Source: Candidatus Krumholzibacteriota bacterium (GTDB taxonomy: Bacteria > Krumholzibacteriota > Krumholzibacteriia > LZORAL124-64-63). Taken from it: DNA of 64,000 nucleotides. This document shows positions 4,499 through 28,814 of the stretch, piece by piece. How positions within the stretch are numbered: the first letter of the stretch is position 1; every line of letters begins with the position of its first letter. Both the position numbers and the translations under genes were made by a program. The notes below the pieces were generated by a model. It searched no databases. It was not told the DNA's origin and worked only from the letters and a program-made list of their open reading frames with translations. The stretch is taken from NCBI GenBank assembly GCA_024277025.1, contig JAJRWA010000082.1, positions 13,169 through 77,168 of the forward strand, read 5' to 3'.

Positions 4499-4653
4499 TT
4501 GCTTCTTCCCCTCGGAAAGTTCTTAACGACCTGGAAACAGTCCCATAAAATGGTAGAAGATCCCCGTTTTCACAAGTTGGACGTTGCCTGAGATTGAATT
4601 TCTGCTAACGTTCGGTCCGATTCCGCGCTTCCTCAACCTGAAAAAGGGCTTCC

Positions 4654-5082: not shown

Positions 5083-5120
5083 ACCGGTTCGGGAAATAAA
5101 GAAATCCTCAATTTTCTCTG

Positions 5121-5148
5121 TTGACACACCGTGTCCGCTTTGTATGAT
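5121..5148 (+). promoter_or_regulatory. Near-consensus sigma70-type promoter upstream of the ParA-CBM48 gene
   Basis: TTGACA (5121-5126), a 16-nt spacer, then an extended -10 TGTATGAT (5141-5148). Matches this close to consensus are rare in this GC-rich sequence. The predicted leader before the ATG at 5276 is about 120 nt. Confidence 0.5.
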
Positions 5149-5275
5149 CGGTCAAACAGGACGACGGAGCGAGGGAGCCGTCCACCCTTTGGCAATAGAT
5201 TCCGGGCGCCCGACCTGAAGGCGGTTCGGACTTTTTGCGGCTTCGCTTTGCGATTCATCATCGAAAGGATTCGAT

Positions 5276-6349
5276 ATGAGAGTCGTCGCTTTGGCCAATC
5301 AGAAGGGTGGTTGCGGCAAGACCACGACCGCGACCAATCTGGCGGCTGCCCTGGCCCAGATGGACAAGAAAGTTCTGCTGATCGATAACGACCCCCAGGG
5401 GCATTCCACCCTGGCCTTCGGCTTCCACGAGCGCGACTTCACCCTCGGCACCTACGATCTCTACCTCACGTCGGACATTCTGGTGGAGGACGCCTTTCTG
5501 GCGGTGTCGCCCAATCTGCACGTGGTGCCGGCCGGCATCGAGCTCAGCGCGGTGGAAATGACGCTGGCCCGCGAGGCCGAGCGGGAACTGCGGCTGCGCC
5601 GGAATCTGCGCCGCAGTGCCATGCCCTACGACTACGTTCTGATCGATTGCCCGCCCAGTGTCAGCCTCCTGACGTTCAATGCCCTGCTGGCCTGCGGCGA
5701 GGTGCTGATCCCCGTGGATCCGAGCAGTTACAGCCTGCAGGCCGTGCGTAAGATGCGTGAAACGTTGTCCGTGGTCAGGGAGAAGAAGGGCCACGACATC
5801 GTGCCCCGTATCCTGATGTCCGACTTCGACACACGGCCGCTCTTCGTCCGCAAAATCATGGAAGAGCTGATCGAGCTCTACGCCGACGAACTGCTCGACA
5901 CGGTCGTGCATCACACCGTGCGCTTCCGGGAGGCGGCCGGGGCCGGCGTACCGGTGATCCTCTACGACCCGGAGTCCCGCGGGGCCCTGGACTTCGCCAG
6001 TCTGGCCCGGGAATTGGCCGCCCAGGAAGTGTCGGTCAAGGTGGCGGCGCTGGACCACTGGTCGGCGTTGCTGCACGGGCCGCGGGTCTCGCCGGCCGGG
6101 GTGCTTTTCGAGGCCGATTTCCCCAGGGCCAAGACCGTACGCATCACCGGATCGTTCTGCGACTGGTCGGCCAAGGGCCTGCCCCTGAACCGGCGGGAGG
6201 ATGGGGCCTGGGAGTGTCGTCTGGAGCTTGAAAGCGGCCGGTATGAGTACCGTTTCATTGTGGACGGGGCGTGGTTGCCCGATCCCCACAACACCGAAAC
6301 GGTGGCCAACGAGTTCGGGGGAGCCAACAGTCAGGTGGTCGTGGGCTGA
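5276..6349 (+). CDS. ParA/MinD-family P-loop ATPase fused to a C-terminal CBM48 / AMPK-beta glycogen-binding domain
   Basis: N-terminal deviant Walker A KGGCGKTT and a Soj/ParA-like core (LLIDNDPQGHST, LIDCPPS). The last ~90 aa (AKTVRITGSFCDWSAKGLPLNRREDGAWECRLELESGRYEYRFIVDGAWLPDPHNTETVANEFGGANSQVVV) match the AMPK1_CBM/CBM48 consensus (GSFnnWs...L.r....w...l.LppGeYeYkFiVDGeW.hDP). Confidence 0.8.
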   Translation: MRVVALANQKGGCGKTTTATNLAAALAQMDKKVLLIDNDPQGHSTLAFGFHERDFTLGTYDLYLTSDILVEDAFLAVSPNLHVVPAGIELSAVEMTLAREAERELRLRRNLRRSAMPYDYVLIDCPPSVSLLTFNALLACGEVLIPVDPSSYSLQAVRKMRETLSVVREKKGHDIVPRILMSDFDTRPLFVRKIMEELIELYADELLDTVVHHTVRFREAAGAGVPVILYDPESRGALDFASLARELAAQEVSVKVAALDHWSALLHGPRVSPAGVLFEADFPRAKTVRITGSFCDWSAKGLPLNRREDGAWECRLELESGRYEYRFIVDGAWLPDPHNTETVANEFGGANSQVVVG

Positions 6350-6393
6350 AGGCCGGCGGCGGTGCCCAGGAGTCAACCGGGAGCAGACAGCCC

Positions 6394-7203
6394 ATGTCAC
6401 GACAACCGCCCGGTTCGCACCGGCACCAACGGCCGGATGGGCAGGTGCACCACATCTCGTCGATCGCCCACCTCTTTCTGGCCGAGGACGAACTGGCGGC
6501 TGAGAGCAGACGTTGCGGGGCCAGCCAGAGTTTTGCGGTGACCTGCTTCCACGATTCGCGGGTTTCCGCTTTCGTCTGCGGGGCGTTGGCGACGGCCGCC
6601 CGCCAGGTTGCCGGCCGCGGCGGGGGACGTCCAGTCCGGTTGCGGGAGGATGCTGGCCTGGCCTGGTCCGTGCGGTCTTTCCTGGCGGATGACAAACTGG
6701 CCGCTTCCCGGATGGCCCGGGGGCAGCCGGGTCATTGGACCTGGTCGCCCGAGGGTTCCGGTGCCGGGGCGGCGGGTCTTGTCCAGTGGAGCCACCTGGC
6801 GGACAACCGTGATTTCGAGGCCGACGAGATAGAGCCGGACGGCGCTATTATCTGCCTCCTGGCCTGCGAGGTGGGCCAGTTGCCCGCCGGCGTGCGTTTG
6901 GGGCGGCTGTTGGGACAGCTCCGGCCCCGCCGTCTGGAGATTCTGGTCTTTCCTGACGAGTGGGCAACGGAACGGCTGCCGGCCAGTGAAGGCCGAGGGT
7001 GGCGGGGCTTCGGTGGGGGCGGACAGGCGGCACTGCTGGCCCGTTGCCGGGACCTGACCCGGGCCATCGGCGGCTGCTGTCCGGTGACGATCACGACTCT
7101 GCCGGCCAACGGCGCCGGCGAGGCCGGCGCCGGCACAACCTCGATCCTGCACAAACTGGCCCAGCGCCTGCTGGGCGATTTTTCGGTGGACCCCGGCTCC
7201 TGA
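6394..7203 (+). CDS. Hypothetical protein downstream of the ParA-CBM48 gene, a candidate partner or adaptor
   Basis: An ORF in a different frame whose first ATG beyond the parA stop is at 6394. The long track ORF starting at 6271 overlaps parA and is rejected. No recognisable domain. Rich in Ala, Arg and Gly. Confidence 0.4.
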   Translation: MSRQPPGSHRHQRPDGQVHHISSIAHLFLAEDELAAESRRCGASQSFAVTCFHDSRVSAFVCGALATAARQVAGRGGGRPVRLREDAGLAWSVRSFLADDKLAASRMARGQPGHWTWSPEGSGAGAAGLVQWSHLADNRDFEADEIEPDGAIICLLACEVGQLPAGVRLGRLLGQLRPRRLEILVFPDEWATERLPASEGRGWRGFGGGGQAALLARCRDLTRAIGGCCPVTITTLPANGAGEAGAGTTSILHKLAQRLLGDFSVDPGS

Positions 7204-7260
7204 CTCCCCTTAGTCTGACCCGCGAGAGACCGCATCTGTTCCCGATTCGCGGAGGCCCCA

Positions 7261-7847
7261 TGAGATCTGCCACGAACAGCCCATTTCTTGGTCGCCTGTT
7301 CGCTTGCCGCCTGTTCGCTTGCCACCTGTTCGTTTGCTGCCTGCTGCTGGGTGGGCTGGTCGCCAGGGCGCCGTCTGCGGCGGCTGCGGAGCGTACGACC
7401 CTCGGCCGGCCCGGCTATCTGGTGATCGAGGGCGTCCGCGACTCCAGTGCGGTGTTCACCTGGCAGGAGGGCCCGGGGCCCGGTCGCCATTCACTGGTGT
7501 GGCCGGAGGGCACACTCAGCCTGCCGTCCGGGCAGAACCTGGACGACTACGGACGGTTGGATGCGGGAGTGGCCTGCGGAGCGGAATTGTCCGGGGTCGG
7601 CGGCAGTGGCCACCTGGTCTTTAACGACGGACTGTACGTCGTCTCGGAGCCGATTGTCCTGGCCGACGGCACCCTGGAACTTCATGTGTCGGCCGGTGAA
7701 CTGGAAATCCGCAGCAACCAGATTCGCTATCGACGGCCCGTGATCGAGGATCACAGCAGTCAAGCCAACTATATCTTTCTGGCCGGGCTGGTCGTGCTGA
7801 TTGTGGTCCTGATGCGCCGGGTGCGGAAGCGGCTGAGGAAGTCTTGA
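7261..7847 (+). CDS. Hypothetical exported protein with an N-terminal signal peptide and a C-terminal transmembrane anchor
   Basis: MRSATNSPFLGRLFACRLFACHLFVCCLLLGGLVARAPSAAAAE looks like a signal peptide. The C-terminus is hydrophobic (IFLAGLVVLIVVL) followed by basic residues RRVRKRLRK. The signal-peptide region is encoded by a 15-bp tandem repeat. Confidence 0.5.
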
Positions 7848-9232
7848 GCAAATTGGTGGACTTGTCTTCGGGCCGGGAGCAGACGGCCTGGTGGTTGCTG
7901 CAGGCCGCCTTGTTCACGCTGCCCTGGATCGGCGTCGGGACAGCGGCCGTCGTGACGGGACGCGACCTGGGCGCCGGGCTGCAGCCATCCTGGCTGGCGC
8001 TCGCGCTGGTGGTCATTCTGCGGGCGCGGGCTATCGTGGAATTTCTGGCCGAGACACGACGATCCTGGCTGGTGGCCGCCGGACCGCTCGCAATGGCGGT
8101 CCTGATTTCCGGGCTGGGAATCTGGGTGGCGCCGTCCGGTGAAGCGGACTCCACGACCGTTCTGCGCTTTGGCAAGCAGATTGTCCAGTTGGGTGTGATG
8201 CTCGCCTTTGTGGTCGTTCCAGCCTTCTACCTCTGGCGGGGCTGCCCCCTGGCGCGGCTGATGCGACCCCTGGCCTGGGGGGCGGTGTTTCAGGTGCTTT
8301 ACGGGGCCGTGCAAGGGGTCAATTACTTCCACCCGCTGCCGGTGATGCCAGCATTGGCAGGATTCTTCACCTCCAATCCCGCCATTTTGTCAGGTTCCGG
8401 TCAATTGTACCTCAGCAACGCCCTGCAGGACGTGCCACGACTGCGGGGGACTGCCTGTGAACCGCTGTATCTGGGCAACTACCTGTTGTTGGCCCTGCCG
8501 GCCGTGGCCCTGACCAAGTGGCCTCGGCGGCGACAGGTGACCGTGGCCGTGGCGTTGGCGGCCCTGCTCTTGCTGACCTGGTCCCGGGGAGCCTGGCTGG
8601 CCGCCATGGCCGCTGGCGCATTCTGGGGCCTGGGTTCGCTTCGCAACGGCCTGCCTGGGTGGCGGGCCGGGAGCGGGCGCCGGCTTGCCTGGGTCGGCGC
8701 GGCCGTCGTCGGGGCCGTCGCCCTGGCCGGTGCGCTGGGGCGACCGGAGGTCTGGCTGCCCTGGCAGCGACTGATCCAGTCCTTCAGTCTGGTGGATTGG
8801 TCGAACCTCACCAGGCTCTACAGCATGCAGGCGGCCTGGCGGGCGTTCCTGCTCAGCCCGCTGATTGGAATCGGCTGGGGCCAGTTCGGCTTCCATTTCG
8901 TGGCTTTGGTGGACCCGATGGGGCTGCAGGCCATGTTCACCTGGCCGGTGGTCAACAACTTCCCGCTGGAGATACTGTGCGAGACGGGAGGACTGGGGGG
9001 ATTGTCGCTGATCTGGCTGGTATGGGTTCTGGCCGGGAAAGTGCGCCAGCGTTTGCTGGCCGGCTCGCCCGGCGACCGTGCGGCCGTTTTGTTGCTGGCA
9101 GCGGCCTCGCTGGGGATCTGGGTGCAGTTGCTGACCTTCTCGCAGTACAATCTGCCGCACATCTGGGTGGCTTTGGGCTTGCTTTGCGGTACCCTGGGCC
9201 CGACCACAGCAACCGGGGAGGGACAGCCATGA
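7844..9232 (+). CDS. O-antigen ligase / Wzy_C-family polytopic membrane protein
   Basis: Many transmembrane segments and the Wzy_C-like motif TWSRGAWLAAMAAGAFWGL with a periplasmic loop. Start and stop overlap the neighbouring genes by 4 nt (operon-style coupling). Confidence 0.65.
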   Translation: MSKLVDLSSGREQTAWWLLQAALFTLPWIGVGTAAVVTGRDLGAGLQPSWLALALVVILRARAIVEFLAETRRSWLVAAGPLAMAVLISGLGIWVAPSGEADSTTVLRFGKQIVQLGVMLAFVVVPAFYLWRGCPLARLMRPLAWGAVFQVLYGAVQGVNYFHPLPVMPALAGFFTSNPAILSGSGQLYLSNALQDVPRLRGTACEPLYLGNYLLLALPAVALTKWPRRRQVTVAVALAALLLLTWSRGAWLAAMAAGAFWGLGSLRNGLPGWRAGSGRRLAWVGAAVVGAVALAGALGRPEVWLPWQRLIQSFSLVDWSNLTRLYSMQAAWRAFLLSPLIGIGWGQFGFHFVALVDPMGLQAMFTWPVVNNFPLEILCETGGLGGLSLIWLVWVLAGKVRQRLLAGSPGDRAAVLLLAAASLGIWVQLLTFSQYNLPHIWVALGLLCGTLGPTTATGEGQP

Positions 9233-11797: not shown

Positions 11798-12443
11798 CCA
11801 TCTATCTGCTCTGGATCCAGCCTCTGACGCGGTGCTCGAATTGGGTAGCGGCGAAGGGCGCCTGAGCGCCCGCATCGCCGAGCTGGCCGGCGGGTGCGTG
11901 CGTTTGGAGCGGCGGCGGCCACAAACCGGTGTGGTCTGCGATCTGGTCGGGGATGCGCGCTTTCCACCCGTCAGGCAGCGGTCATTGGCGGTTGTCGTGG
12001 CGGCGAACCTGGTCAGGCATCTGCGTCCGCGGCAACGGCTGGGAGAGTGGCTGGAGTCGTGGCGGCGCCTGCTGCGTCCGGACGGCGCCCTGTACATCCT
12101 GGAGGATGACCCCGATCCGACGGTACCGGCGCAGAGAAACTTCCGGGACCTGCAGCGATTCCTGGCCCGCTTGTTGCCCGAGTCACGGGGAACGCTTTTG
12201 GGATTGAACCGGTTTCGTGAGAGTGTGGCCTCTGGCGAGGCGGCCGCCGGCTGGACCTTCGGCTATCAACAGAACGGTGTGGGAGTGGATCCGACTGAAG
12301 TGCTGCGGCTGTTGAGTGCCGGACAGGGCCGGGTTACCGGGGCCGAGGCTGCGCTGAGCGAGGCGATCAGTCGGGATGGGATCGCGCCTGGCCGGTACTG
12401 GTGGGCCCGGGCGGAAGCCCCTGGCGATGAGGTGGAACGATGA
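11763..12443 (+). CDS. Class I SAM-dependent methyltransferase
   Basis: Glycine-rich SAM-binding motif VLELGSGEGRLS and an acidic motif ALYILEDDPD. Start taken at the ATG at 11763 (MSFSPLPKNF), which overlaps the upstream gene's 3' end. The long upstream extension in the track (from 11583) is rejected. Confidence 0.6.
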   Translation: MSFSPLPKNFTDHLSALDPASDAVLELGSGEGRLSARIAELAGGCVRLERRRPQTGVVCDLVGDARFPPVRQRSLAVVVAANLVRHLRPRQRLGEWLESWRRLLRPDGALYILEDDPDPTVPAQRNFRDLQRFLARLLPESRGTLLGLNRFRESVASGEAAAGWTFGYQQNGVGVDPTEVLRLLSAGQGRVTGAEAALSEAISRDGIAPGRYWWARAEAPGDEVER

Positions 12444-13762
12444 AGAGAACAGGTGTCTGGCTGGCCTTGGGTGCTCTGTGCGGCGGGCTGGTTCTGGCCA
12501 CGCTGGCACCGCGCTCGGTGGTGGACTGGCGGGCGGTGCGGGCCATCGGCCTGGAGAGCGATGATTGGGGCCTGGCCGGATTCGTGCCGCGGGCCGACAG
12601 CTGGCAGGGACTGGACCGCGAGGCCCTCAAGCCGGGGCGATTCCCGCCCGTCTACTGGGGGTCCACCCTGGAGGACGCGGCGGTGGTCGAGCGAATGACC
12701 AGTGTGCTGGCCGCTCACGTCGGGCGCGACGGAGTGCCCGCGGTGTTTCAGCCCAATTATGTGATGGGTTCGTTGGGATACGATGAGGCTGACGGACGTT
12801 GGCAGTCGTACGAATTGCCCCACTGGCCGCCCGAGTACCCGCGGCCCGGGTTGTGGCGGGCGGTCGTACAGGCGCAGGCCCGCGGGGTGTGGCATCCGGA
12901 GTTGCACGCGGCGCTGCACTATGATCCGGAACTGCGGCAGAGTCGGGGGCTGGAGTCTGAGCTGGCCCGCGCGGTCACCGGTCGTGGGATTACCCTGTTT
13001 CCTGGCAGCGAACAGGCCCGTGAACTTTCGCCGGGACGGTCTGCTGAAGCCATGACAGCTGAATTGGCTCACTCGCTGGCCGTATTCGCGCGCGTGTTCG
13101 GGCGACCGGCGGGATCAATCATTGCGCCGGACTACACGTGGTCCGGCTGGCATGAGAGATTGTGGCAGGAGCGCGGTCTGTCGGTCATTCAAGCCAAGCG
13201 GGAACAACTGAACCCTTTGTGGCTGTCCGGCATGCCGGGTCGGATTCAGAAGTACCTGGACCGGCAATGGGCCAAGCTGACCCAGTTTGGCCGCACCTAT
13301 CTGGAACGCAATTGCCTGCTGGAGCCGGTGCAGTCGGACGACGCGGCTGCCGTAGTGGACCGCTGCCTTGAAGACACGCGCCGGGCCTGGCGCCGGGGAC
13401 AGCCGGCAATCGTGGAAACCCATCGGGTGAACTTTGCCCATACGGACCCTCGCATTGTTGCGACGGGGCTCGAGGCGCTGGACGACTATCTGTCTGCGGC
13501 CTGCCTGCTCGATGGCGGGCCGGTCTTCCTGTGCGACACCGAGATTGCGCAGCTGACGAGGCGTGGCGTGAGTTGGCGGCGGTCCGGCGGCCAACTGGTA
13601 CTGCGCAACGCGACCCACTCCGCCCGGGTTCTGACCCTGTCGGTGGCCGAGTTGGCAACGTGCGGCCTGGTTGGTCGGCAGCCCGTTTTTATTCTGCTTG
13701 CGGCTGGTCAGGTTCTCCGGTTGGACCTGTCCGAGTTGAAGTTGCGCGGCAACTTATCCTGA
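12440..13762 (+). CDS. Hypothetical exported protein (signal peptide) of unknown function within the glycan cluster
   Basis: MKRTGVWLALGALCGGLVLATLA looks like a signal peptide. No domain could be assigned confidently by eye. The start overlaps the methyltransferase stop by 4 nt. Confidence 0.45.
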   Translation: MKRTGVWLALGALCGGLVLATLAPRSVVDWRAVRAIGLESDDWGLAGFVPRADSWQGLDREALKPGRFPPVYWGSTLEDAAVVERMTSVLAAHVGRDGVPAVFQPNYVMGSLGYDEADGRWQSYELPHWPPEYPRPGLWRAVVQAQARGVWHPELHAALHYDPELRQSRGLESELARAVTGRGITLFPGSEQARELSPGRSAEAMTAELAHSLAVFARVFGRPAGSIIAPDYTWSGWHERLWQERGLSVIQAKREQLNPLWLSGMPGRIQKYLDRQWAKLTQFGRTYLERNCLLEPVQSDDAAAVVDRCLEDTRRAWRRGQPAIVETHRVNFAHTDPRIVATGLEALDDYLSAACLLDGGPVFLCDTEIAQLTRRGVSWRRSGGQLVLRNATHSARVLTLSVAELATCGLVGRQPVFILLAAGQVLRLDLSELKLRGNLS

Positions 13763-14143
13763 CAGTGTGCCTTTTTTTGTGCTATTGATAACGCGTTTTA
13801 GTAATTTACTGTCATTAAGGGTATTTCTGCTTCTAAATATGATCCATTGACCGGAATTCCTCGGTGTGGTATAGTTTTGATTGCGCATAATAGCGCACCA
13901 GGGTCACACGTTCATCGTGCATTTGAGTACAAGTCATTGGGAGGTCTCTCAGACAGCCAAGGCTAACGCGCAACATATCCGGGGCGGGTCAATCAAGATC
14001 CGGACCGGATCGTATCGACACCGATGGAAATGGAATCGTTCTGACCCTGAGGTTCATTCCTCGCCAAATCATACCTCGTCCCGGAGCGGGCTCAAGGCGC
14101 TGGCGGTGCCTTTCCTGCCCGGACGAGTGTTCGGAGGCCATGC

Positions 14144-17100
14144 ATGCTCGCATACGGAGTTCGCCCGCTCAAAATTGCATCCCTGATTTTTATTCTGACC
14201 CTGCTGGCGGTTCCTGCCGGTACGGCCCTGGCGGCCGCAGGTTCTGGTCAAGTGATCCATGAAGGCACCTTTGGCCGGGACCAGTTCGGCTGGGCCACCG
14301 CGCCCGGTGGCAACGCCTATCCCGTGATCACCGGATCGCGCACCCTGGCGGAGCCCGGTCTGCCTATGCTGCCGGTGAGTGAGATGCTTTTTCTGGTGCC
14401 TCTGGGCAGTGATGTTGCGCGGGTTTGGATCGAGCCGCTGGCCACCCACCGGGAGCAGTTGAGCCAACCGTTGCCGTTGGCTGAGGGGCACGCCGCCGAT
14501 TCCGGCGAGCTGCTGATGACTCGTATTCTGGCCGACGATGGTCCGGCTTTTCCCGCTGCCTGGAGCCGCTCCGGCGGCACCCATGTTTGGCGTGGCTACC
14601 GCCTGCTGGCGGTGACGGTGTATCCGGTGCGGCGGGTCACGGAAGACGGTGTCACGGCTCTGGAATACCTCGACGAGTACGCGGTGCGGGTCGAATTCAA
14701 GGCGAATGATCGCCCGGAAGACGTGGTGCAGCGGCAGCGGTTGGTGGCCGGTGAGGCCCGCAGCAACCAGGCGATGCTGGCCAGGTTGGTGGCCAATCCG
14801 GAAGTGGTCGCCTCGTATAACCGTGAGACCGGTGTCGCGATCGCCGAACCCGCCGGTGGCTTTCAGCCCACGGTGGCGCCCAGTCTCGCGGGCAGTGGCG
14901 TCAACTACCTGATCATCACCAACGAGGACATGCGGGCGTCATTCCAGGTCCTGGCTGATTTCAAGACAGCCCAGGGTCTGCCGGCCGTGGTCGTGACGCG
15001 CGAAGAGATCGCCGCCACGAGCCGGAACGGTGCGGACATCCAGGAGACCATCCGGATGTACATCCAGGATGCCTACGCCATGTGGGGCGTGGAGTATGTC
15101 CTGCTCGGCGGCGATTCCGATATCCTGCCGCCCCGCTACATCAAGAACTCGTTCTACCCGACCAACGGCTACACCGCGATTCCGTGCGACCTGTATTTTG
15201 CCTGCCTGGACGGCAACTGGAATGCCGATGGGGACAGTGAATTCGGTGAGCCGGCGCAGCTTCCCGCCGTTGGGGATCTGGTCGATTTCGCGGAGGAAGT
15301 CTATGTGGGGCGGGCTGCGGTCAGCGACCCGGCCGCCGCGCTGGTTTTTGTGAACAAGGTCATCGGGTACGAGACGACGGCCGCCGGGGTGCAGTGGACC
15401 AATCGGGCGCTGTTCGCCGCGGAAGTGCTCTTCCCCTCGGACTTCGACGTGCAGGGCTATATCATTCTGGACGGTGCCAAGTTCGCCGACCAGCAGGTGA
15501 CCGAGTCCATCGTCCCGTGCACGACCATGGAATATACGCGGATGTACGAGACGGACATGGATCACCCGTGGGATGCGCCGCTGACCCGTGCCGCCTTGAT
15601 TGATACCCTCAACACGGGCCACTACGGAATTTTCAACCAGATTGGCCACGGCTACTACTTCAATATGTCCGTTGGCGACGCCAACTTCATGACCACCGAT
15701 GCGGACGCGCTGACCAACGGCGACAACCTGTTCATGATCTACGCCTTGAATTGCGCGTCCGCTGCCTTCGACAACTCGTGTCTGCTCGAGAGGTTCGTGC
15801 AGAACCCGAACGGGGGATCCGTATGTTCGATCGGCTCGGTGCGGGCGGCGTTCCCGAACAACTCCAACAACTACCAGCAGAACTTCTTCGGTGAGCTGTA
15901 TTGTCTGGATGAAGCCCGGGCGGGGAATCTGATCGCCATGAGTCGCCTGCCCTATATCGGCGCGACCGTCGACAACTATGTCGACCGCTGGACTTTTGAG
16001 AACTACACGCTGCTGGGCGATCCGGCCCTGCAGATTTGGACGGGTGTGCCGGCAGCCGTGGCGGTGGGCGGACCTGTCGCCCTGAATCCCGGCCCGCAGA
16101 CCCTGGTCTACACGATCACCGCCGGCGGCAGCCCCGTGGCCGGCGCCCGGGTCTGTCTGGCCAAGGACGGCGAGGACTATGCGTATGGTCTGACCGACGC
16201 CCTGGGGCAGGTCAGCTTGGACTTCCTGCCGGCCAGCACCGGCACGGCGACCCTGACGGTCTCGGGCAAGAACCTGGCCCAGACCAGTCTGGCCATACCG
16301 GTCACGGCGGGTGATTCCTACTTTGCTCTGGATTCGATGGCAATAGGCGATGACGGTTCGAACGGCAGCCTGGGCAACGCCAACAGCATCATGGACACCG
16401 GTGAAACGGTGGCTCTGTCGCCGGTTCTGCTGGAAACCGGCGGGGTGCCCGAGTTGGGCCTGAGTGCGGTACTGACCTGCGACAACGGTCTGGTGACGAT
16501 CGTCAACGGTACGGCCAACCTGGCCGCAGTCGGCGCGGGTGGCCTGACGAGCGTGGATACACCGTTCCTGGTGGCGGTGTCGCCGGACCTGGCAGACGGG
16601 ACCAGGCTGACCTTCCAACTGGATGTCACCGGCGCCAACGGCAGCTATGTCGTTCGCTGGGGGGTGAATGTGGCCGGCCCCGAAGTGGAGGTCACCGGCC
16701 TGGACTGGGACGACAGTGTTTTTGGCGACGGCAATGGAAGTTTCACCGACGGCGAGCGCCTGGCGATCACCGTTGACCTGAAGAACTACGGCAGTGGTCT
16801 GGCCGACCAGATCACGGGTGTGCTGAGGACGTCCTCGGCGAATTTCACGATTTACGACAGCACGGCAACCTGGACGGATCTCGGCCTGATGGAAGAGAGC
16901 CCGGGCAGCCTGATGTTCTCCGCGTCGGTGCCGTTGGCGAGCAAGGCCCACGCGGCGTGGATTCTGTTCACGGACAACCACGGGCGTACTTTCCGGCACG
17001 ACTTCAGTCTGCCGCGGCCGGCCGCGCCGCTGAATATCTACACCGATACCAGTCTCGGCGCCGACGTGATCGCCCTGAGCTGGGATCCGGCGGCCACCGC

Positions 17101-18991
17101 GTCGGTGTTCGGTTACAACGTCTATCGCAGCCTGGATCCGGGCGGTCCGTTTGTCCGGGTCAACGAGGATGTCATCGCCGGGACTTCCTACTATCGGGAC
17201 GAAGGCCTCGGGCAGTTGACACGGTACTACTATCAGGTGGCGAGCATCGATTCGACGCTGGTCCCGTCGGTGGCCTCGGCCGTGGTCGTGCAGTCGACCG
17301 CTCCGGCCGAGCAGCAGGGGTTCCCGGTCGAGTTCTCGGATGAGACCAGCAGCCACGCTGCCGTGGGCGATGTCGATGGTGACGGCGACGATGAAATCAT
17401 CCTGGCCAGCAGCCAGGTCTACGTGTGGCACCATGACGGGCTTGAGCTCTATGACGGTGACAACGATTCCCAGACCCTGGGCAATTTCACGGATTTCCCG
17501 GTGGGTGCCTTGCTCCAGCCAGCCGGGGTCACTCTGGCGGATCTGGATGGCGTGCCGGGTGCCGAGATCATCGTGACGGAACGCTCACCGGCCACGCAGA
17601 TCCATGTCTACCGGTTTGACGGCAGCGAGCTTCCGGGCTGGCCCCAGTCCACCGGTGGTGTGGCGGGATCGCGCTGGAACTGGGCGACGCCCGCCGTTGG
17701 CGATATCGATGGCGATGGCCAGGACGAGGTCGTGGTCAACACGCTGAACGGCCGCGTCTGGGCCTGGCATGGGGATGGGACCGAAGTGCGTGACGGGGAC
17801 GGCGATCCGACCACCAATGGTTTGTTCTACGTGCGGCCCGGCGCCGACTGGGAGTGGAGCCGCAGTGGTCCGGCCCTGTACGACCTGGACGGTGACGGTG
17901 CCAAGGAGATTATCTTCGGCACGAAGAACGATGACACGGGATTGCGCCGCTTGATGGCCTTGAAGTCCGACGGCACCGATGCGCCCGGCTTCCCCTATAT
18001 CGCCAACGGTCCCATCAGCTGTGATCCGGCCATTGGCGATCTGGACAACGACGGCGTCGTTGAGATCGTGTTCTTCGATCAGTACAAGTATGTGTACGCG
18101 GTGCGGCAGGACGGCACGGATTATCCCGGCTTCCCCAAGCTGACGCCCTACGCGGCAAGCTCGAGCTGGGTGACCAGCCCCGGCCTGGGCGACATGGATG
18201 GCGACGGGATGCTTGAGATCATCTACGCGCCCAACGACACCGGTTTGCTGAGCCGGATCATTGTCATGGACACGGATTACGCCGGTGGCACTTCCGGCGA
18301 TTTCCTGCCGGGCTTCCCGGTCGATCTGCCCGGCAGTTCGGAAGGCAGTCCGATCATCGCCGATATCGACGGGGACAGTTCGCCGGACATCGTGCACGGG
18401 ATCGGCGGCGGCGACGAGAGTGCCCCGTACAACCTGTATGCCTACCACGCGGACGGATCACCCATCGACGGCTTCCCCATCACTCTGACCGGACCGATCA
18501 TGCCGGCGGTCACGATCACCGATGTCGACAACGACTCGGATGTGGATATCGTCTACGGCGGCTGGGATTTCAAGATGCACGTCTGGGATATGCCGTTCGC
18601 CTACAGCGGCGTTAATTCACCGTGGCCGACGTTCGGGGCTTCGGCCAGGCGTGACGGCGTGATACGGTCGCTGTATGTCTCGGGCGTTGATGGGCGGGAC
18701 GATGTGCCGGCGGCGGGCTTTACGGTCAACAACCCGTATCCCAATCCGTTCAATCCTTCGACGTCGATCCAGCTCTATATCCCGGCCGGTGCCGAGCTTG
18801 AACTGGGCATCTACGATCTGGCCGGACGCCGGGTGCGGTTGCTGCACAACGGCGCGATCAGCGCTGGCTGGCACACCCTGGTCTGGGATGGGCAGGATGA
18901 CGACGGGCGCGGGCAGGCCAGCGGCTTGTATTTTGCGCGGGTCCGCAGCGCCGGCAAGAGCACGATCAAGAAGATGACCCTGGTCAAGTAA
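14144..18991 (+). CDS. Giant secreted multidomain protein: signal peptide, gingipain-like C25 cysteine peptidase domain, Ig-like/spacer region, FG-GAP/VCBS-type repeat block, and a T9SS-type C-terminal sorting domain
   Basis: 1615 aa, uninterrupted. An N-terminal signal peptide (IFILTLLAVPAGTALAAAG) and a C25-family propeptide/catalytic region (VNYLIITNEDM...YVLLGGDSDILPP...IGHGYYFNMSVGD...IYALNCASAAFD) with catalytic-His/Cys-like contexts. A run of DxDGDG...EI[IV] FG-GAP-type calcium-binding repeats (DVDGDGDDEIIL, DIDGDGQDEVVV, DLDGDGAKEIIF, DLDNDGVVEIVF, DMDGDGMLEIIY, DIDGDSSPDIVH, DVDNDSDVDIVY). A C-terminal ~90 aa matches the Por_Secre_tail/FlgD-Ig-like CTD (NNPYPNPFNPSTSIQLYIP...GIYDLAGRRVRLL...GLYFARV...KKMTLVK). 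Confidence 0.8.
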   Translation: MLAYGVRPLKIASLIFILTLLAVPAGTALAAAGSGQVIHEGTFGRDQFGWATAPGGNAYPVITGSRTLAEPGLPMLPVSEMLFLVPLGSDVARVWIEPLATHREQLSQPLPLAEGHAADSGELLMTRILADDGPAFPAAWSRSGGTHVWRGYRLLAVTVYPVRRVTEDGVTALEYLDEYAVRVEFKANDRPEDVVQRQRLVAGEARSNQAMLARLVANPEVVASYNRETGVAIAEPAGGFQPTVAPSLAGSGVNYLIITNEDMRASFQVLADFKTAQGLPAVVVTREEIAATSRNGADIQETIRMYIQDAYAMWGVEYVLLGGDSDILPPRYIKNSFYPTNGYTAIPCDLYFACLDGNWNADGDSEFGEPAQLPAVGDLVDFAEEVYVGRAAVSDPAAALVFVNKVIGYETTAAGVQWTNRALFAAEVLFPSDFDVQGYIILDGAKFADQQVTESIVPCTTMEYTRMYETDMDHPWDAPLTRAALIDTLNTGHYGIFNQIGHGYYFNMSVGDANFMTTDADALTNGDNLFMIYALNCASAAFDNSCLLERFVQNPNGGSVCSIGSVRAAFPNNSNNYQQNFFGELYCLDEARAGNLIAMSRLPYIGATVDNYVDRWTFENYTLLGDPALQIWTGVPAAVAVGGPVALNPGPQTLVYTITAGGSPVAGARVCLAKDGEDYAYGLTDALGQVSLDFLPASTGTATLTVSGKNLAQTSLAIPVTAGDSYFALDSMAIGDDGSNGSLGNANSIMDTGETVALSPVLLETGGVPELGLSAVLTCDNGLVTIVNGTANLAAVGAGGLTSVDTPFLVAVSPDLADGTRLTFQLDVTGANGSYVVRWGVNVAGPEVEVTGLDWDDSVFGDGNGSFTDGERLAITVDLKNYGSGLADQITGVLRTSSANFTIYDSTATWTDLGLMEESPGSLMFSASVPLASKAHAAWILFTDNHGRTFRHDFSLPRPAAPLNIYTDTSLGADVIALSWDPAATASVFGYNVYRSLDPGGPFVRVNEDVIAGTSYYRDEGLGQLTRYYYQVASIDSTLVPSVASAVVVQSTAPAEQQGFPVEFSDETSSHAAVGDVDGDGDDEIILASSQVYVWHHDGLELYDGDNDSQTLGNFTDFPVGALLQPAGVTLADLDGVPGAEIIVTERSPATQIHVYRFDGSELPGWPQSTGGVAGSRWNWATPAVGDIDGDGQDEVVVNTLNGRVWAWHGDGTEVRDGDGDPTTNGLFYVRPGADWEWSRSGPALYDLDGDGAKEIIFGTKNDDTGLRRLMALKSDGTDAPGFPYIANGPISCDPAIGDLDNDGVVEIVFFDQYKYVYAVRQDGTDYPGFPKLTPYAASSSWVTSPGLGDMDGDGMLEIIYAPNDTGLLSRIIVMDTDYAGGTSGDFLPGFPVDLPGSSEGSPIIADIDGDSSPDIVHGIGGGDESAPYNLYAYHADGSPIDGFPITLTGPIMPAVTITDVDNDSDVDIVYGGWDFKMHVWDMPFAYSGVNSPWPTFGASARRDGVIRSLYVSGVDGRDDVPAAGFTVNNPYPNPFNPSTSIQLYIPAGAELELGIYDLAGRRVRLLHNGAISAGWHTLVWDGQDDDGRGQASGLYFARVRSAGKSTIKKMTLVK

Positions 18992-19084: not shown

Positions 19085-20746
19085 GTGAAGCCAGTGCCTC
19101 CCCTCGGATTCCATGTCCAGCACGCCGGATCGCGGGCCGCGATCGTCGTGGCGCTGTGCCTGGCCGGGCTCGGGGGCTGTGGCGACCGCGGTGGATCGGG
19201 CACGGGGGACCTGGCGCAGGAGACGGCCGGATCGGTGCCGGGGGGGACGGCGGTGATCGCCTTGTCGTCGGAACCGGATGTCCTCAATCCCCTGATTTCC
19301 GCCTCGACGATTGCCGGCCGGGTGATGGCCGAAATACACGAGGGTCTGACCGAAATGGACGACTCGCTGGCGTATGTACCGCGCATCGCCAGCCGCTGGG
19401 AAATCGATCCGGACCGTCGGGCCATCACCTATTTCATGCGGCGGTGGCGCTGGTCGGATGGCCAGCCCCTGACGGCATTTGATGTGGCGGGCTCGTTCGA
19501 CATCTTTGTCGATCCCGTGGTCGCCAGCACGCGGCGCGGGCGGCTGCGCGAGGTCAGCAGCGCCGTGGCCCTGGATTCGTTAACCGTGCGCTACACCTTC
19601 ACGCGCCCCCAGGCCGAGCCTCTGCCGCGCTCATGGCACCACATCCTGCCGCTGCACGTGGTCGGCGACCTGGACCGGGCCGATGTCGCCTCGTGGCCGA
19701 TCAACGACCACCCGCTCTCTTCGGGCCCGTTCCAACTTGAATCCTGGGACCACAACCGCCAGCTGACAATGGTGCGGAATCCGCTGTACCCCGGCACGCC
19801 CGCCTTGCTCGAGCGGGTCGTTTTTCGGATCCTGCCGGAGGCAAGTACGCGGCTGGTGGCGCTTGAAACCGGCGAGGTCGATCTGGTCAATGGCCTGGAC
19901 CCCATCGCGGCCCGCCGCCTGGCTGACGGAGGGGCGGTCCGGATCGTCTCGAATGGCGGCCGCAGTTTCTACTTCGTCAGTTGGAATCTGCGCAACCCGA
20001 TCTTTGCCGATGCCGGGACCCGGCGTGCCCTCGGGCTGGCGTTCGACCGCCAGCGGATGGTGGACAACTTGTTGGAAGGCTATGGCCAACCTGCGATTGG
20101 CCCCATTCCGCCGGTCATGTGGAATCACCATGTCCTGTTGGCGCCGGTGCGGCAGGACCTGGCGCAGGCCGGGGCGCTGTTGGCGGCCGCAGGCTGGCGC
20201 GACGACGACGGTGACGGCGTGCTGGAGCGGGACGGGCTCAGGTTCGAGTTCGAGATGATCACCAAACAGGGCGATCCGGTCCGCGAGAATGGGGCGGTGA
20301 TCCTGCGCAGCAACCTGGCCGGGATCGGCGTGAAGGTCAATCTGCGGGTGATGGAGCTGTCGGCGGGCATCGCCCAGGTCAGGGCCGGGCGTTTTGACGC
20401 CTATTTCGGGCTGCAGAATGCCAACCTGTTCGGGAACCCGGCCGGCAATGTCCGCTCGGACGCGACGGACCAGTTCAACTTCGGTGCCTACGCCAACGCC
20501 GAGGTGGACTCATTGCTGGACGTGGCGACCGGACTGCTGAGCAGGGAGGACGCCCTGCCGGTGTGGCTGCGCCTGCAGGAAGTGTTGGCCGACGACCCGC
20601 CGGCCGCCTACCTGATGTACCCGGACAATCTGGTCGGGGTCAGCCGGCGTCTCCGGAATGTCAAACCGAGCCTTCTGTCCCCCTTCAACAACCTGGCGGA
20701 GTGGTGGGTCCCGGCAAGCGAGCGTATCTACCGTACCGGCAAGTAA
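19085..20746 (+). CDS. ABC transporter substrate-binding protein, family 5 (OppA/DppA/NikA-like), probable lipoprotein
   Basis: SBP_bac_5 features (AVIALSSEPDVLNP ... RIASRWEIDPD ... full-length ~550 aa) and a lipobox-like LAGLGGC. The start is uncertain. An in-frame GTG at 19085 gives a plausible signal peptide. Confidence 0.65.
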   Translation: MKPVPPLGFHVQHAGSRAAIVVALCLAGLGGCGDRGGSGTGDLAQETAGSVPGGTAVIALSSEPDVLNPLISASTIAGRVMAEIHEGLTEMDDSLAYVPRIASRWEIDPDRRAITYFMRRWRWSDGQPLTAFDVAGSFDIFVDPVVASTRRGRLREVSSAVALDSLTVRYTFTRPQAEPLPRSWHHILPLHVVGDLDRADVASWPINDHPLSSGPFQLESWDHNRQLTMVRNPLYPGTPALLERVVFRILPEASTRLVALETGEVDLVNGLDPIAARRLADGGAVRIVSNGGRSFYFVSWNLRNPIFADAGTRRALGLAFDRQRMVDNLLEGYGQPAIGPIPPVMWNHHVLLAPVRQDLAQAGALLAAAGWRDDDGDGVLERDGLRFEFEMITKQGDPVRENGAVILRSNLAGIGVKVNLRVMELSAGIAQVRAGRFDAYFGLQNANLFGNPAGNVRSDATDQFNFGAYANAEVDSLLDVATGLLSREDALPVWLRLQEVLADDPPAAYLMYPDNLVGVSRRLRNVKPSLLSPFNNLAEWWVPASERIYRTGK

Positions 20747-20815
20747 TACCCGACTGAGAATCAAGTCAGGCGCGGCCATTGTGCAATGGTCCGCGTATTC
20801 GTAAATTGGAGTATC

Positions 20816-22420
20816 ATGAAGAGCTTCAACGGCGGAAAAAAATGCCTTGTTTGGCCCATCTGGCTGGGGATTGCCGCGCTGTGCGCCGTCCTGGTCGGCG
20901 GTGGCTGCAGTGGTTCCACCGACCCCGGCGACGGGGGCGAGACGATTACGATCTCCTTCAATCCGGTGGCGCAGGGGCAAGAGGTGGATCTGGGCGCCAC
21001 GCTGGGTTTTTCAGTGACCGCGCCCAAGGCTGCGGTCCTGAACGTCAACTGGTGGCGCAATGGCATCGTTGACCGGCGGGGGACGGAGTACACCTACGTG
21101 CCGGCGGTGCCCGGCGTCGACACCCTGCGGGCCCAGGCGGAAGCCGACGGAGTGACGGATTCGTATTTTTGGGTGATCAACGTGAAATCGACGGGCAATT
21201 CTCTGCCGCCCGCGGTGCCTGCTGTCGCGGCCGGACCGGGACCGGCGCCGGGGGATGTTCTGGTTTCATGGATGCGGGCCGGACCGTCGGCCTATCCCGT
21301 CGTGGCCTATCAGGTGGCCATCAGCTACACCGGCGTGATCACCGAGGCGAACTGGGCTTCGGCCCGGATGGTCCGCGAGGTGCCGAACGAGGTCGGGCGG
21401 GTGGGCTACGAGGAAAACCTCACCGTTGCCGGCGAGCAGATGGTGCCGGGGGCCGATGCCTGGTTTGCCGTGCGGGCCCTGGATGAGATCGGGCAGATGT
21501 CACCGGTGGCGACCAACGGCTTCACGACCATCACCACCGGCTGGTGGTTGAACGGCGTGGTCCGGGATGACCGGGACGCGCTGCTGGTGGGCGCGACGGT
21601 GCGCAGTGCCGATCCGGACCTGAGCACCAACACGGACGTCAATGGCCTGTTCTCCCTGGGGCCGTTTCGCAGCATTGATCGGGCCGTCCTGACAACCGCG
21701 ACCAGCAACGCGGCGATCAGCGGCTGGTTCGATTTCCAGTCCGGCGAAATCGACAGCGTCAGCGGCCGCGACTACGAGATCGTGCTGATCCGACGGTACG
21801 TCCTGGACGCCGAGTGCGATTTGTACGGCGGCCAGTTCCTGAATTACCTGCGGGTTATGACCCGTACGGAATTTGATGTGACCGACCCGGCCAACACGGT
21901 ACTGCACCGGTGGGACACCTACCCGTTGCGCGCCTATGTGCCGGACCTGGTCAACAGTACCGGCGTGGATTTCGGCGAGGCGGCCCGGTTCGCCATGGCC
22001 TACTGGGATTCGGTGATGGGTGAAGCCTATTTTGCCGCTGCGACGGACGAAGCGGCGGCCGAGGTCGTGTTCGTGTTCGATGACTCGCGGCCGAATTTCA
22101 ACGGGCAGGTGAGTTTGCTGGAACCGTCCGGCCCGGACATCAATCTCGGGGACGTGGTGCCGGAAAAAGTCGAATCATACCTGAACACGACTATCGCCAC
22201 GCAGAAGTTCGCCCGCGAGGTCGCCCTGCACGAATTGGGGCACGTGCTGGGACTGCTGAGCCACTCCGCCTGCCGGCAGTCCGGCTACCTGATGGTCGCC
22301 GGGGCCAGTGGCAATCTGAGCAATCCCGACCCGATTCATCCGGACGAACAGAATGCCGCCCGGTGTGTGAGGCGGCTGCCCCGCGAAGTGGATATGGCCG
22401 GCTATTCGGTCAGCAGGTAG
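20816..22420 (+). CDS. Predicted lipoprotein with a C-terminal metzincin-type zinc-protease motif (HExxHxxGxxH)
   Basis: Signal peptide plus lipobox (AALCAVLVGGGCSG), an Ig/FN3-like N-terminal region, and a C-terminal HELGHVLGLLSH that exactly fits the metzincin HExxHxxGxxH signature. Confidence 0.55.
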   Translation: MKSFNGGKKCLVWPIWLGIAALCAVLVGGGCSGSTDPGDGGETITISFNPVAQGQEVDLGATLGFSVTAPKAAVLNVNWWRNGIVDRRGTEYTYVPAVPGVDTLRAQAEADGVTDSYFWVINVKSTGNSLPPAVPAVAAGPGPAPGDVLVSWMRAGPSAYPVVAYQVAISYTGVITEANWASARMVREVPNEVGRVGYEENLTVAGEQMVPGADAWFAVRALDEIGQMSPVATNGFTTITTGWWLNGVVRDDRDALLVGATVRSADPDLSTNTDVNGLFSLGPFRSIDRAVLTTATSNAAISGWFDFQSGEIDSVSGRDYEIVLIRRYVLDAECDLYGGQFLNYLRVMTRTEFDVTDPANTVLHRWDTYPLRAYVPDLVNSTGVDFGEAARFAMAYWDSVMGEAYFAAATDEAAAEVVFVFDDSRPNFNGQVSLLEPSGPDINLGDVVPEKVESYLNTTIATQKFAREVALHELGHVLGLLSHSACRQSGYLMVAGASGNLSNPDPIHPDEQNAARCVRRLPREVDMAGYSVSR

Positions 22421-27644: not shown

Positions 27645-28814
27645 TTGGCGGACCACAAGATCATCAGTTCGCTCATGCGGCCTTTCTTTCGCAAAGGAAC
27701 GGAAGCTTCGTTCATGGTGCCGGGTGTCCTGCGCGAGGACTCCCGCATTCTGTGCATCGATCCGGGCGATCTGAGTGACGTCCTGTTTCATATCCCGTTG
27801 CTGACGGCTATCCGGCGCCGGTACCCCGGTTCGAAAATGGATTTCCTCCTGCCGGAGAAACACGCGCCGCTGATTGTGCCGAGCGGGCTGGCGCGGCAGT
27901 GCATCATCTACAAGGACAGGCAACTGAACCCCTGGCGGCCGGATTTCAGTTCGCTGTTGCGCAAACTCGGTGCGGGCAACTACGACGTGGCCCTGGTCAT
28001 GTCGTACCAGCCGCAGCCGCGCCTGGAGTTGGCTGCCCTGGCCAGCGGCGCCGGTTTCCGCTACGGACCCAGCCACAAGGATGCCTGGCCGGCCATCAAC
28101 TTCGAGATGCGTGCTGGCGCCGAGACGCCGGGGTACCGGGGTGATCGTCTGCGGCGGGCCGCCCCGTTCCTGGGCTTCGCACCCGAGGAACTGAACGCGC
28201 GCTGGCCGCTGCCCATGGACAAGGTCCGGCAGATGGCCCAGCAGGTGCACTTCCACAAACCCAATCCCGATCAGATGCTCATCGGCGTGGATCCCGGGGT
28301 CGGCAAGACAGGGCATGCCTTTGCCCTGGAGAACCTGCAGTTCCTGGTGCGTCAGTTGGCCAGTCAGTTCGTCTGCAAGGTGCTGCCGCTGGGCGACCCC
28401 CATGACCGCGAACGTCTGGAGAAGTTCGAGACCAGGCTGTCGGAAGTACCGGTGGGCCTGGAGCGGGAGACGCTGCTGGAGATGATCCTGCTGCTTTCCC
28501 AGTGCGACCTTTTCGTCAGCGGCAATACCGATTTCTTCCATTTTGCGGTGGCCCTCGGCGTGCCCACGATCGGGCTTTTCAGCCAGCGGGACGGCTCGGA
28601 GTGGCTGCCGGGCGACCGGTCGCGCGTGAAGGTGCTGAAGGTGACCAAGGGCGAGAAGGTGGATATCGAGACCCTGATGGAAGCGGTCGAGGCGGTGACC
28701 GAGGGGCGCACCAGTACGGCGTCCACGGCGCTGGCCGTCGAGACGACGCCGGCCGTGACGGTTGACGACGGGCCGGCCGGCCCGGTGGACGATTCCGTCG
28801 CCGGGCGTGAGTAG
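27645..28814 (+). CDS. Glycosyltransferase family 9 (LPS heptosyltransferase-like) with a C-terminal low-complexity tail
   Basis: GT9 fold hallmarks (ILCIDPGDLSDVLFHIPLL ... GVDPGVGKTGHAF ... FVSGNTDFFHFAVALGVPTIGLF). Confidence 0.65.
   Translation: MADHKIISSLMRPFFRKGTEASFMVPGVLREDSRILCIDPGDLSDVLFHIPLLTAIRRRYPGSKMDFLLPEKHAPLIVPSGLARQCIIYKDRQLNPWRPDFSSLLRKLGAGNYDVALVMSYQPQPRLELAALASGAGFRYGPSHKDAWPAINFEMRAGAETPGYRGDRLRRAAPFLGFAPEELNARWPLPMDKVRQMAQQVHFHKPNPDQMLIGVDPGVGKTGHAFALENLQFLVRQLASQFVCKVLPLGDPHDRERLEKFETRLSEVPVGLERETLLEMILLLSQCDLFVSGNTDFFHFAVALGVPTIGLFSQRDGSEWLPGDRSRVKVLKVTKGEKVDIETLMEAVEAVTEGRTSTASTALAVETTPAVTVDDGPAGPVDDSVAGRE

Follow-up and report, generated by a model that had tools for sequence, protein, structure and literature searches.

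A predicted gingipain-type cysteine protease with an FG-GAP propeller and a C-terminal sorting tail is encoded at a conserved locus of Krumholzibacteriota

The 64,000-nt stretch analysed here (the window), taken from contig JAJRWA010000082.1 of a Candidatus Krumholzibacteriota bacterium, contains at positions 14144..18991 of the forward strand a genuine gene for a predicted exported gingipain-type cysteine protease that carries a propeller and a sorting tail. We consider it probable that the product is an endopeptidase of MEROPS family C25 (clan CD), exported as a zymogen, which breaks down extracellular protein into peptides that the cell captures. The open reading frame (ORF) runs from ATG to TAA over exactly these coordinates and encodes 1615 residues, with a GGAGG located 6 nt 5' of the start codon and a GC content at third codon positions (GC3) of 0.80, similar to that of the neighbouring genes. 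No other ORF in the window is as long, the runner-up having 866 residues; ORF calls thus bear out the extent and rank given in the original prediction, which had been made from the letters alone. [quoted passage not shown]

Profile search against Pfam revealed an almost complete Peptidase_C25 domain (PF01364), which scores 198.4 bits against a cutoff of 23 and covers positions 1-373 of the 374-position model. A phmmer search of the PDB matched RgpB (1cvr and 4ief_B), placing His502 of the GHG motif on RgpB His211 and Cys537 of the NC motif on RgpB Cys244. Both residues are invariant in a MAFFT alignment of 113 full-length relatives, as are 201 other positions, and both are also invariant in 30 distant relatives. 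The assignment to C25, with the histidine in IGHGYY and the cysteine in ALNCAS as the dyad, is therefore confirmed by the profile score, the alignment and the invariance. A further invariant residue, Glu427, sits two residues off the column aligned to RgpB Glu152, and may tentatively be taken as its counterpart. The AlphaFold2 model of residues 31-735, computed with 62 homologs, has a mean predicted local distance difference test score (pLDDT) of 91.3 and a predicted template modelling score (pTM) of 0.92. Structural similarity search of this model using Foldseek revealed RgpB (1cvr) with an E value of 2.4e-25 and a target-normalised template modelling score (TMt) of 0.84, together with the catalytic and immunoglobulin superfamily (IgSF) domains of Kgp (6i9a/4rbm) with a TMt of 0.79. 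Structure prediction, suggested earlier as a way of examining the dyad, thus yields a model that matches both RgpB and Kgp at E values of about 1e-25.

The N-terminal part of the same model resembles the gingipain prodomains. Foldseek against the PDB returned the RgpB prodomain chains 4ief_A/C/E/G (E values from 4e-6 to 1e-5, TMt of about 0.6), and the Kgp prodomain 5mun was matched as well. From these fold matches we read the N-terminal ~220 residues as a prodomain of the gingipain type, and we expect the enzyme to be synthesised as a zymogen. The prodomain region of the query gave no Pfam match, the C25 propeptide model PF08126 (Propeptide_C25) included, and the latter model does match 10 of the 30 distant family members. 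The C25 propeptide named in the original prediction is in line with both the fold matches and these relatives. Inspection of the translation by eye, without a signal-peptide predictor, places a predicted signal peptide ahead of the prodomain, with the sequence MLAYGVRPLKIASLIFILTLLAVPAGTALA/AAG.

In overall layout the protein is comparable to the Porphyromonas gingivalis gingipains RgpB, RgpA and Kgp, which also have a signal peptide, a prodomain, a caspase-like His/Cys domain, an IgSF domain, non-catalytic domains and a T9SS CTD. However, the identity to the gingipains is just 18-20%, the CTD has an FlgD_ig-like flavour, and the host belongs to the environmental Krumholzibacteriota rather than being a pathogen of the Bacteroidota. 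Compared to RgpA and Kgp, the haemagglutinin/adhesin domains are replaced by the two β-sandwiches, the Fn3 domain and the eight-repeat FG-GAP propeller. Compared to RgpB, the alignment offers no acidic counterpart of the S1 residue Asp163, which falls on a non-acidic residue of the query.

Downstream of the catalytic domain, the Ig-like region aligns to the IgSF domain of RgpB up to chain residue 432 of the latter. The Pfam model CarboxypepD_reg reaches 26.5 bits over residues 660-725, below its cutoff, and Peptidase_C25_C (PF03785) matches five of the 30 distant relatives. The two following β-sandwiches each carry a GNG(D/N)G...GE motif; in the AlphaFold2 model they resemble CARDB or DUF11 domains. 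No family profile matched these two regions of the query, and CARDB, DUF11 and Big_1 match a few of the distant relatives. The Fn3 domain was recognized by its similarity to the Fn3-like structure 3mpc_A (E value 3.5e-5 with the single sequence and 4.4e-7 with the profile) and to Fn3 domains of titin, and Pfam fn3 matches five of the 30 distant relatives. The Ig-like spacer of the original prediction is thus present as an Ig domain, but the two additional β-sandwiches and the Fn3 domain that precede the propeller had gone unmentioned.

The model of residues 728-1615 has a mean pLDDT of 88.4, and its segment from about residue 1060 to 1500 is all-β with a pLDDT of about 90. Over this segment the protein matches FG-GAP_3 (PF13517) in five stretches with 78.9 bits (cutoff 26.9) and FG-GAP (PF01839) with 36 bits (cutoff 22.1). 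Eight Dx[DN]xD calcium-loop motifs, at residues 1076, 1133, 1187, 1247, 1301, 1354, 1407 and 1460, follow each other at a spacing of 53-60 residues, in keeping with the "at least seven" DxDGDG-type repeats counted earlier. Foldseek of this 888-residue C-terminal model gave as informative matches only the FG-GAP propellers of CRTAC1 (9etn) and of ITFG2 in KICSTOR, the rest being mostly generic Ig/Fn3-array structures. Altogether, we describe the segment as a predicted calcium-binding propeller of eight repeats, with the blade number taken from the motifs and not from coordinates. A similar succession of FG-GAP repeats and a type-A CTD is found in NF052323, the model of a T9SS-dependent M6-like inactivated metalloprotease; residues 1342-1607 align to its positions 785-1030 with 86 bits, far below the cutoff of 600. 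However, the N-terminal enzyme module differs, being C25 in the present protein and M6-like in NF052323. Between the propeller and the CTD, the pLDDT drops below 50 at model residues 784-797 and 808-810, around residues 1511-1537 of the protein. This linker is where the CTD would most likely be cleaved off, if such processing takes place at all.

The tail shows the sequence pattern YPNPFNP...WDG...SGLYF...KKMTLVK and is modelled as a β-sandwich of about six strands (residues 1540-1613). It scores 30.3 bits with the NCBIfam model of the T9SS type-A sorting domain (TIGR04183, cutoff 23) and 39.4 bits over residues 1540-1603 with Pfam FlgD_ig (PF13860, cutoff 27). As judged from these profiles, the tail is a T9SS-type CTD by one curated model and an FlgD-like Ig domain by another. 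The earlier call of a T9SS-type CTD ending in KKMTLVK agrees with TIGR04183, though the second Pfam model of such tails stays below its cutoff (see below); the profile searches recommended at the time, with Peptidase_C25, FG-GAP and TIGR04183, have all given matches above cutoff. The matched sorting domain occupies residues 1532-1611 of 1615, at the extreme C-terminus of a protein with a predicted Sec signal at its N-terminus, and in an alignment with the family profile it falls on the CTD of P. gingivalis PorU (6za2). A hidden Markov model (HMM) built from the last 88 residues of the family was run on the proteins encoded in the flanks of related loci, and detected the same tail at the C-terminus of a plastocyanin-like cupredoxin, a P-domain protein of the proprotein-convertase type, a GDSL-like hydrolase, an M30-like peptidase, an SBBP propeller protein and an adhesin of ~2200 residues. 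In two of the 30 distant family members, the tail is replaced by CHU_C, a type-B T9SS signal. The modular reuse, the terminal position and the type-B signal found instead in some relatives argue for the tail being a sorting tag.

The same profiles leave room for another view, in which the CTD is merely a structural Ig fold as in FlgD, the protein stays in the periplasm or takes a different export route, and a T9SS is absent from the lineage. In accord with it, the best Pfam match of the tail is FlgD_ig, Por_Secre_tail (PF18962) remains below its cutoff (17.7 versus 27), and the PDB sequence matches of the tail are FlgD proteins. Moreover, neither the 64-kb window nor ~1.4 Mb of related flanks showed a core T9SS gene (SprA/Sov, PorK/L/M/N or PorU), with PorV likewise missing from the window, our literature search found no publication linking the T9SS to Krumholzibacteriota (or Delphibacteria), and reviews mostly confine the system to Bacteroidota. 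The sub-threshold Por_Secre_tail score, the lack of core genes in the regions covered and the silence of the literature found also weigh against the export route that we favour. On the other hand, TIGR04183 is above its cutoff, the tail invariably sits at the end of the protein and recurs on unrelated secreted proteins, it aligns to the CTD of PorU, and a type-B CTD stands in its place in two distant members; it has also been stated that the T9SS may occur in other phyla belonging to the FCB (Fibrobacterota-Chlorobiota-Bacteroidota) group (PMC11285876). A screen of the flanks, in which 156 non-redundant gene clusters were assessed by N-terminal hydrophobicity and seven candidates were scanned with profiles, gave a single positive, a 328-residue protein of locus L056 that matches the PorV/PorQ family model NF033709 with 107.9 bits (cutoff 90). 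Its gene directly follows that of a giant adhesin with the CTD, and a C25 paralog is found ~9 kb away. Used as a query, this protein retrieved 18 relatives only, none of them labelled Krumholzibacteriota, which lie in a cassette of adhesin, PorV-like and tetratricopeptide repeat (TPR) proteins and not beside core T9SS genes. The evidence from L056 therefore supports PorV/PorQ-type partners for the CTD proteins, but not a core secretion apparatus. We regard a purely structural tail as improbable. The idea that the CTD implies a T9SS encoded elsewhere in the genome finds partial support in the reused CTD, the type-B CTD of two distant members and the PorV/PorQ gene, whereas core genes were not seen in the window and flanks.

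Several further CTD-bearing or PorV/PorQ-linked gene arrangements were observed in the related loci. In L056, nucleotides 1-8372 of the minus strand encode the ~2200-residue surface protein with the same CTD followed by the PorV/PorQ-family outer-membrane barrel. Nucleotides 2503-11976 of L086 (plus strand) encode a 2013-residue surface protein with DUF11/CLIPPER repeats, a PorV/PorQ-family barrel, a 505-residue protein and a TPR protein, apparently as a cassette. In L048, L033 and L066, minus-strand ORFs of ~217-247 residues encode a small plastocyanin/azurin-type copper protein with the same CTD; these bacteria would accordingly have a cupredoxin that is exported or attached to the surface.

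Searching 5.8 billion proteins, we retrieved a 100% identical NCBI entry (P0001) and more than 120 full-length relatives with 48-73% identity, nearly all of 1600-1625 residues and with the same set of Pfam domains. The named ones are entered as C25 family cysteine peptidase, VCBS repeat-containing protein or T9SS type A sorting domain-containing protein of Candidatus Krumholzibacteriota or Krumholzibacteriia. The present protein belongs to the same family as these automatically annotated proteins from metagenome-assembled genomes, from which it differs solely by sequence divergence, with synteny conserved. A scan of one genome per GTDB species gave 94 relatives, whose informative labels are mostly Krumholzibacteriota. 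The gene is a syntenic ortholog across this phylum, and the alignment of 113 relatives shows hardly any gaps across its 1615 columns. Standard pipelines already name the protein, which is uncharacterised and has features typical of a large family; our literature search found no experimental study of any family member from Krumholzibacteriota.

On a wider scale, an exhaustive phmmer search with residues 31-735 against 1.84 billion representatives clustered at 50% identity gave 1,610 matches at E <= 1e-30 and 6,008 at E <= 1e-10, many of which are 1550-1750 residues long. Thirty distant representatives with 23-36% mutual identity were taken for alignment and Pfam scan. They align along the whole length and keep the architecture of ~1600 residues, with C25 in all 30, FG-GAP_3 in 29, FlgD_ig in 29 and Por_Secre_tail in five. 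This architecture is thus ancient, widespread and of ordinary size, and the view of the protein as unusually large and repeat-rich is not borne out, ~1600 residues being the family norm. The copy number is variable. Many genomes possess a second, unlinked copy, for example JADJQR01 (L017 and L041), JAIFKS01, JAJRZA01 and CAIOLW01, and in more distant lineages two or three copies lie in tandem, flanked by the gene for a 440-residue protein and that for a solute-binding protein (SBP), both described below. Locus L085 (4586-20027, plus strand) contains three tandem copies of the C25-propeller-CTD gene, and tandem duplication or triplication was also seen in L051, L058, L063, L064, L068, L070, L074-L076, L078 and L079.

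The gene is preceded by its own promoter. At 13750-13900 the GC content falls to 34-39%, compared to ~65% elsewhere, and this stretch contains a sigma-70-type element reading TTGACC-17-TGGTATAGT. The pattern TTGAC-N17-TGnTATAGT was found in 27 related loci, ~110-310 nt (mostly 210-280 nt) 5' of the ortholog. A leader of ~268 nt separates the promoter from the start codon; it folds better than shuffled sequences (z = -3.4) and is little conserved in sequence beyond the promoter. A riboswitch or other known RNA in the leader was considered and set aside, as no Rfam match occurs in the whole window. The atypically AT-rich stretch that had been noticed ahead of the gene is real, but it is not an island: since it holds a conserved promoter and the region is collinear in ~45 related loci, horizontal acquisition was rejected. 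The stretch is a conserved intergenic promoter plus leader, and not foreign DNA.

The window represents core chromosome, with genes for SurA, Lon, LexA, EF-P, FtsK, PolA, RF2, LysRS, LolCDE, ClpB/C-like proteins and lipopolysaccharide (LPS) heptosyltransferases. Upstream of the C25 gene, the order is ParA-CBM48, two small genes, Wzy_C, GT4, a family-4 (WecA-like) transferase, a methyltransferase and a secreted protein of 440 residues; after an intergenic gap of ~300-400 nt it continues with C25, SBP_bac_5, a protein of ~540 residues, HIT, PfkB, LexA, HSP20 and Lon. This order is kept down to ~45% identity. The SBP_bac_5 gene lies directly 3' of the C25 gene in 45 of the 59 non-redundant loci with enough downstream sequence, and in 40 of these 45 the 440-residue protein gene also precedes C25. 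The 440-residue protein, encoded at 12440-13762 of the forward strand between the glycan genes and C25, has a signal peptide, matches nothing in Pfam or NCBIfam, and shows 35-64% identity across loci.

The SBP is most similar to peptide/nickel binding proteins; its best NCBIfam match, Opp4A with 156 bits, is below the equivalog cutoff. No terminator-like site was found between the C25 and SBP genes. The next gene encodes a lipoprotein that reaches 23.3 bits with Matrixin against a cutoff of 24. The motif HE[LF]GHxxGxxxH occurs in 23 plus-strand ORFs of 380-750 residues in related loci, and orthologs with 29-57% identity lie 3' of the SBP gene in most type-A loci. On the strength of this motif we read the product as a putative zincin metallopeptidase. 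The coordinates of all these features are given in Table 1.

Table 1. Coordinates in the window of the C25 gene features, the promoter and the two downstream genes
Feature	Residues	Nucleotides	Strand	Basis
Sigma-70-type promoter, TTGACC-17 nt-TATAGT with extended -10 TG		13847..13875	+	Scan, 10/12 positions; TG present
Predicted signal peptide	1-30	14144..14233	+	Basic n-region, hydrophobic core, ALA then AAG; read from translation
Putative gingipain-type prodomain	~31-250	14234..14893	+	Fold match to RgpB/Kgp prodomains
Peptidase C25 catalytic domain	255-630	14906..16033	+	Pfam PF01364
Catalytic His (IGHGYY)	502	codon 15647-15649	+	Aligned to RgpB His211
Catalytic Cys (ALNCAS)	537	codon 15752-15754	+	Aligned to RgpB Cys244
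Ig-like (IgSF) domain	~640-731	16061..16336	+	Aligns to RgpB IgSF, as in RgpB/Kgp
Two β-sandwiches	~735-954	16346..17005	+	AlphaFold2 secondary structure, pLDDT ~90
Fibronectin type III domain	~956-1050	17009..17293	+	PDB sequence/profile matches
Predicted FG-GAP β-propeller	~1060-1500	17321..18643	+	FG-GAP profiles, eight Dx[DN]xD motifs
Low-confidence linker	~1501-1531	18644..18736	+	AlphaFold2 pLDDT
C-terminal sorting domain, plus stop	1532-1615	18737..18991	+	TIGR04183, FlgD_ig
SBP_bac_5 (peptide/nickel-type) solute-binding lipoprotein		19085..20746	+	SBP_bac_5 253 bits; lipobox LAGLGGC; start codon uncertain
Putative zincin-type metallopeptidase lipoprotein		20786..22420	+	HELGHVLGLLSH at 22229-22264; lipobox GGGC

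The conserved promoter of its own, together with the conserved trio of protease, SBP and zincin, makes a role in peptide scavenging the most likely one, and the exported scavenging or surface protease envisaged in the original prediction fits this context of an SBP_bac_5 lipoprotein and a zincin lipoprotein conserved downstream. We propose that the protein would leave the cytoplasm via Sec by means of its N-terminal signal peptide, and that the ~220-residue prodomain, by homology of fold to those of RgpB and Kgp, would keep the His502/Cys537 site latent until it is removed. Its profile match, position and modular reuse suggest that the C-terminal β-sandwich acts as a T9SS type-A-like signal for export and sorting at the outer membrane. 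The tail would probably be cut at the disordered linker, and the protein either released or held at the surface. The stalk of Ig, β-sandwich and Fn3 domains and the FG-GAP propeller most likely bind the substrate or a surface. In this way the protease, the peptide-type SBP and the zincin lipoprotein might together convert external protein into peptides for uptake. C25 peptidases of candidate phyla of the FCB group have likewise been read as nutritional proteases (PMC4454575, PMC8542988).

Besides the points already raised on the tail, several observations weigh against this scavenging role. The SBP has no adjoining permease or ATPase genes. As collinearity extends over the entire 25-kb region throughout the phylum, the adjacency of C25, SBP and zincin is by itself weak evidence of a shared function, weaker than it appears. 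For a protease with a purely nutritional role, the nearly gap-free conservation and the site beside envelope-glycan genes are unusual. Given the non-acidic residue in the column of RgpB Asp163, Arg specificity cannot be assumed, and the cleavage specificity is not one that the alignment allows to be inferred. Finally, activity, secretion and localisation are predictions for every member of the family.

The large non-catalytic part invites the suggestion that the protein is chiefly a surface adhesin for cell-cell or matrix interaction, in which C25 serves only for self-maturation or some narrow processing. Residues 640-1500, over half of the protein, consist of the Ig, β-sandwich, Fn3 and propeller modules typical of adhesins, and RgpA and Kgp likewise join a protease to adhesin domains. 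The propeller is also conserved much like the protease domain, with a mean identity per 50-residue block of 0.55-0.72 versus 0.63-0.81. Nevertheless, the dyad and many residues around it are invariant down to 23-36% identity, the retained prodomain implies that the activity is regulated and important, and the conserved partners are a peptide-type binding protein and a metallopeptidase. An adhesin of this kind thus seems unlikely to us, and the degradative role remains the preferred one.

The glycan genes directly upstream raise a different possibility, namely that the protein is a sortase like PorU, which would strip the CTDs from cargo proteins and attach the cargo to a surface glycan made by the products of the Wzy_C, GT4, WecA-like and methyltransferase genes. 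It would then be an envelope-biogenesis factor of Krumholzibacteriota and related FCB lineages, a PorU-like peptidase/transpeptidase that processes the many proteins with such tails and couples proteins with FlgD_ig-type CTDs to the glycan of the adjacent genes, and not a feeding enzyme. PorU is itself a C25 enzyme that keeps its own CTD, and the PorU model NF033707 is the best NCBIfam match of the query (90.7 bits, residues 251-631). The family profile aligns to the N-terminal catalytic subdomain of PorU 6za2 (residues 398-588) and to its CTD (residues 1060-1137). Furthermore, orthologs occur in synteny throughout the phylum with hardly any indels along the 1615 residues, the gene directly follows conserved envelope-glycan genes, and the many proteins of the lineage with the same CTD would need a processing enzyme.

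However, the 90.7 bits, confined to the C25 part, compare to a cutoff of 420, and the N-terminal model of PorU2 (NF052324) gives 32.5 bits against 450. RgpB and Kgp are clearly closer: the family profile scores 65 bits on RgpB versus 42 bits on PorU 6za2, and Foldseek of residues 31-735 returned PorU with an E value of only 7.7e-10 and a TMt of 0.19, compared to ~1e-25 and ~0.8 for the gingipains. The protein also has a gingipain-type prodomain and an IgSF domain of the RgpB/Kgp type, genomes often contain two unlinked or two to three tandem copies, and the promoter is not shared with the glycan genes. An FG-GAP propeller is absent from PorU. On the NCBIfam cutoff and the far better match to RgpB and Kgp in both sequence and fold, identity with PorU was rejected; a sortase function is very improbable, and we give no more credence to the broader role in envelope biogenesis. 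If true, the latter would amount to a variant module for attachment in type IX-like secretion beyond the Bacteroidota.

Taken as a gingipain-type zymogen, the protein exemplifies a large uncharacterised family of proteases that combine a propeller with a T9SS-type tail. This family is a constant part of the core genome in an uncultured phylum, and its members are candidate agents of protein breakdown in sediments, sludge and soils. The modular CTD adds indirect evidence for CTD-dependent sorting beyond Bacteroidota, which reviews treat as uncertain. The protein reveals no new mechanism, and its annotation could already be reached by standard pipelines.

Some other genes of the window deserve a brief description; all are on the forward strand. 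The gene at 5276-6349 encodes a P-loop ATPase of the ParA/MinD type (AAA_31, CbiA) with a CBM48/AMPK1_CBM glycogen-binding module fused to its C-terminus. The fusion heads the syntenic block in related genomes, where it shows 57-85% identity, and it may be a positioning ATPase for glycogen granules. Directly after lon, at 27645-32736, four family-9 (heptosyltransferase-type) glycosyltransferase genes and one gene for a HAD-like hydrolase form a row that suggests an elaborate LPS core. Genes for an McsA-like protein and McsB (protein arginine kinase), followed by one for a ClpB/ClpC-type AAA+ chaperone, are located at 58629-62955; this McsA/McsB/Clp module for quality control by arginine phosphorylation is best known from Firmicutes, and the host of the window is a diderm of the FCB group.

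The release factor 2 gene prfB (54026-55135) starts with a short upstream ORF that ends with CTT TGA C (54088-54094), preceded by an internal Shine-Dalgarno sequence AGGAGGG, and the main PCRF/RF-1 ORF continues in the +1 frame; expression of the gene apparently depends on the classic programmed +1 frameshift. The DNA polymerase I gene (50553-53387) contains one in-frame TAG at 52860-52862, after which the frame continues to the normal end. This TAG falls inside the conserved R-R-x-A-K-x-x-N-F-G motif (...DAEMR*RAKAINFGVIYGM...), and could represent an assembly or sequencing error, a pseudogene or recoding.

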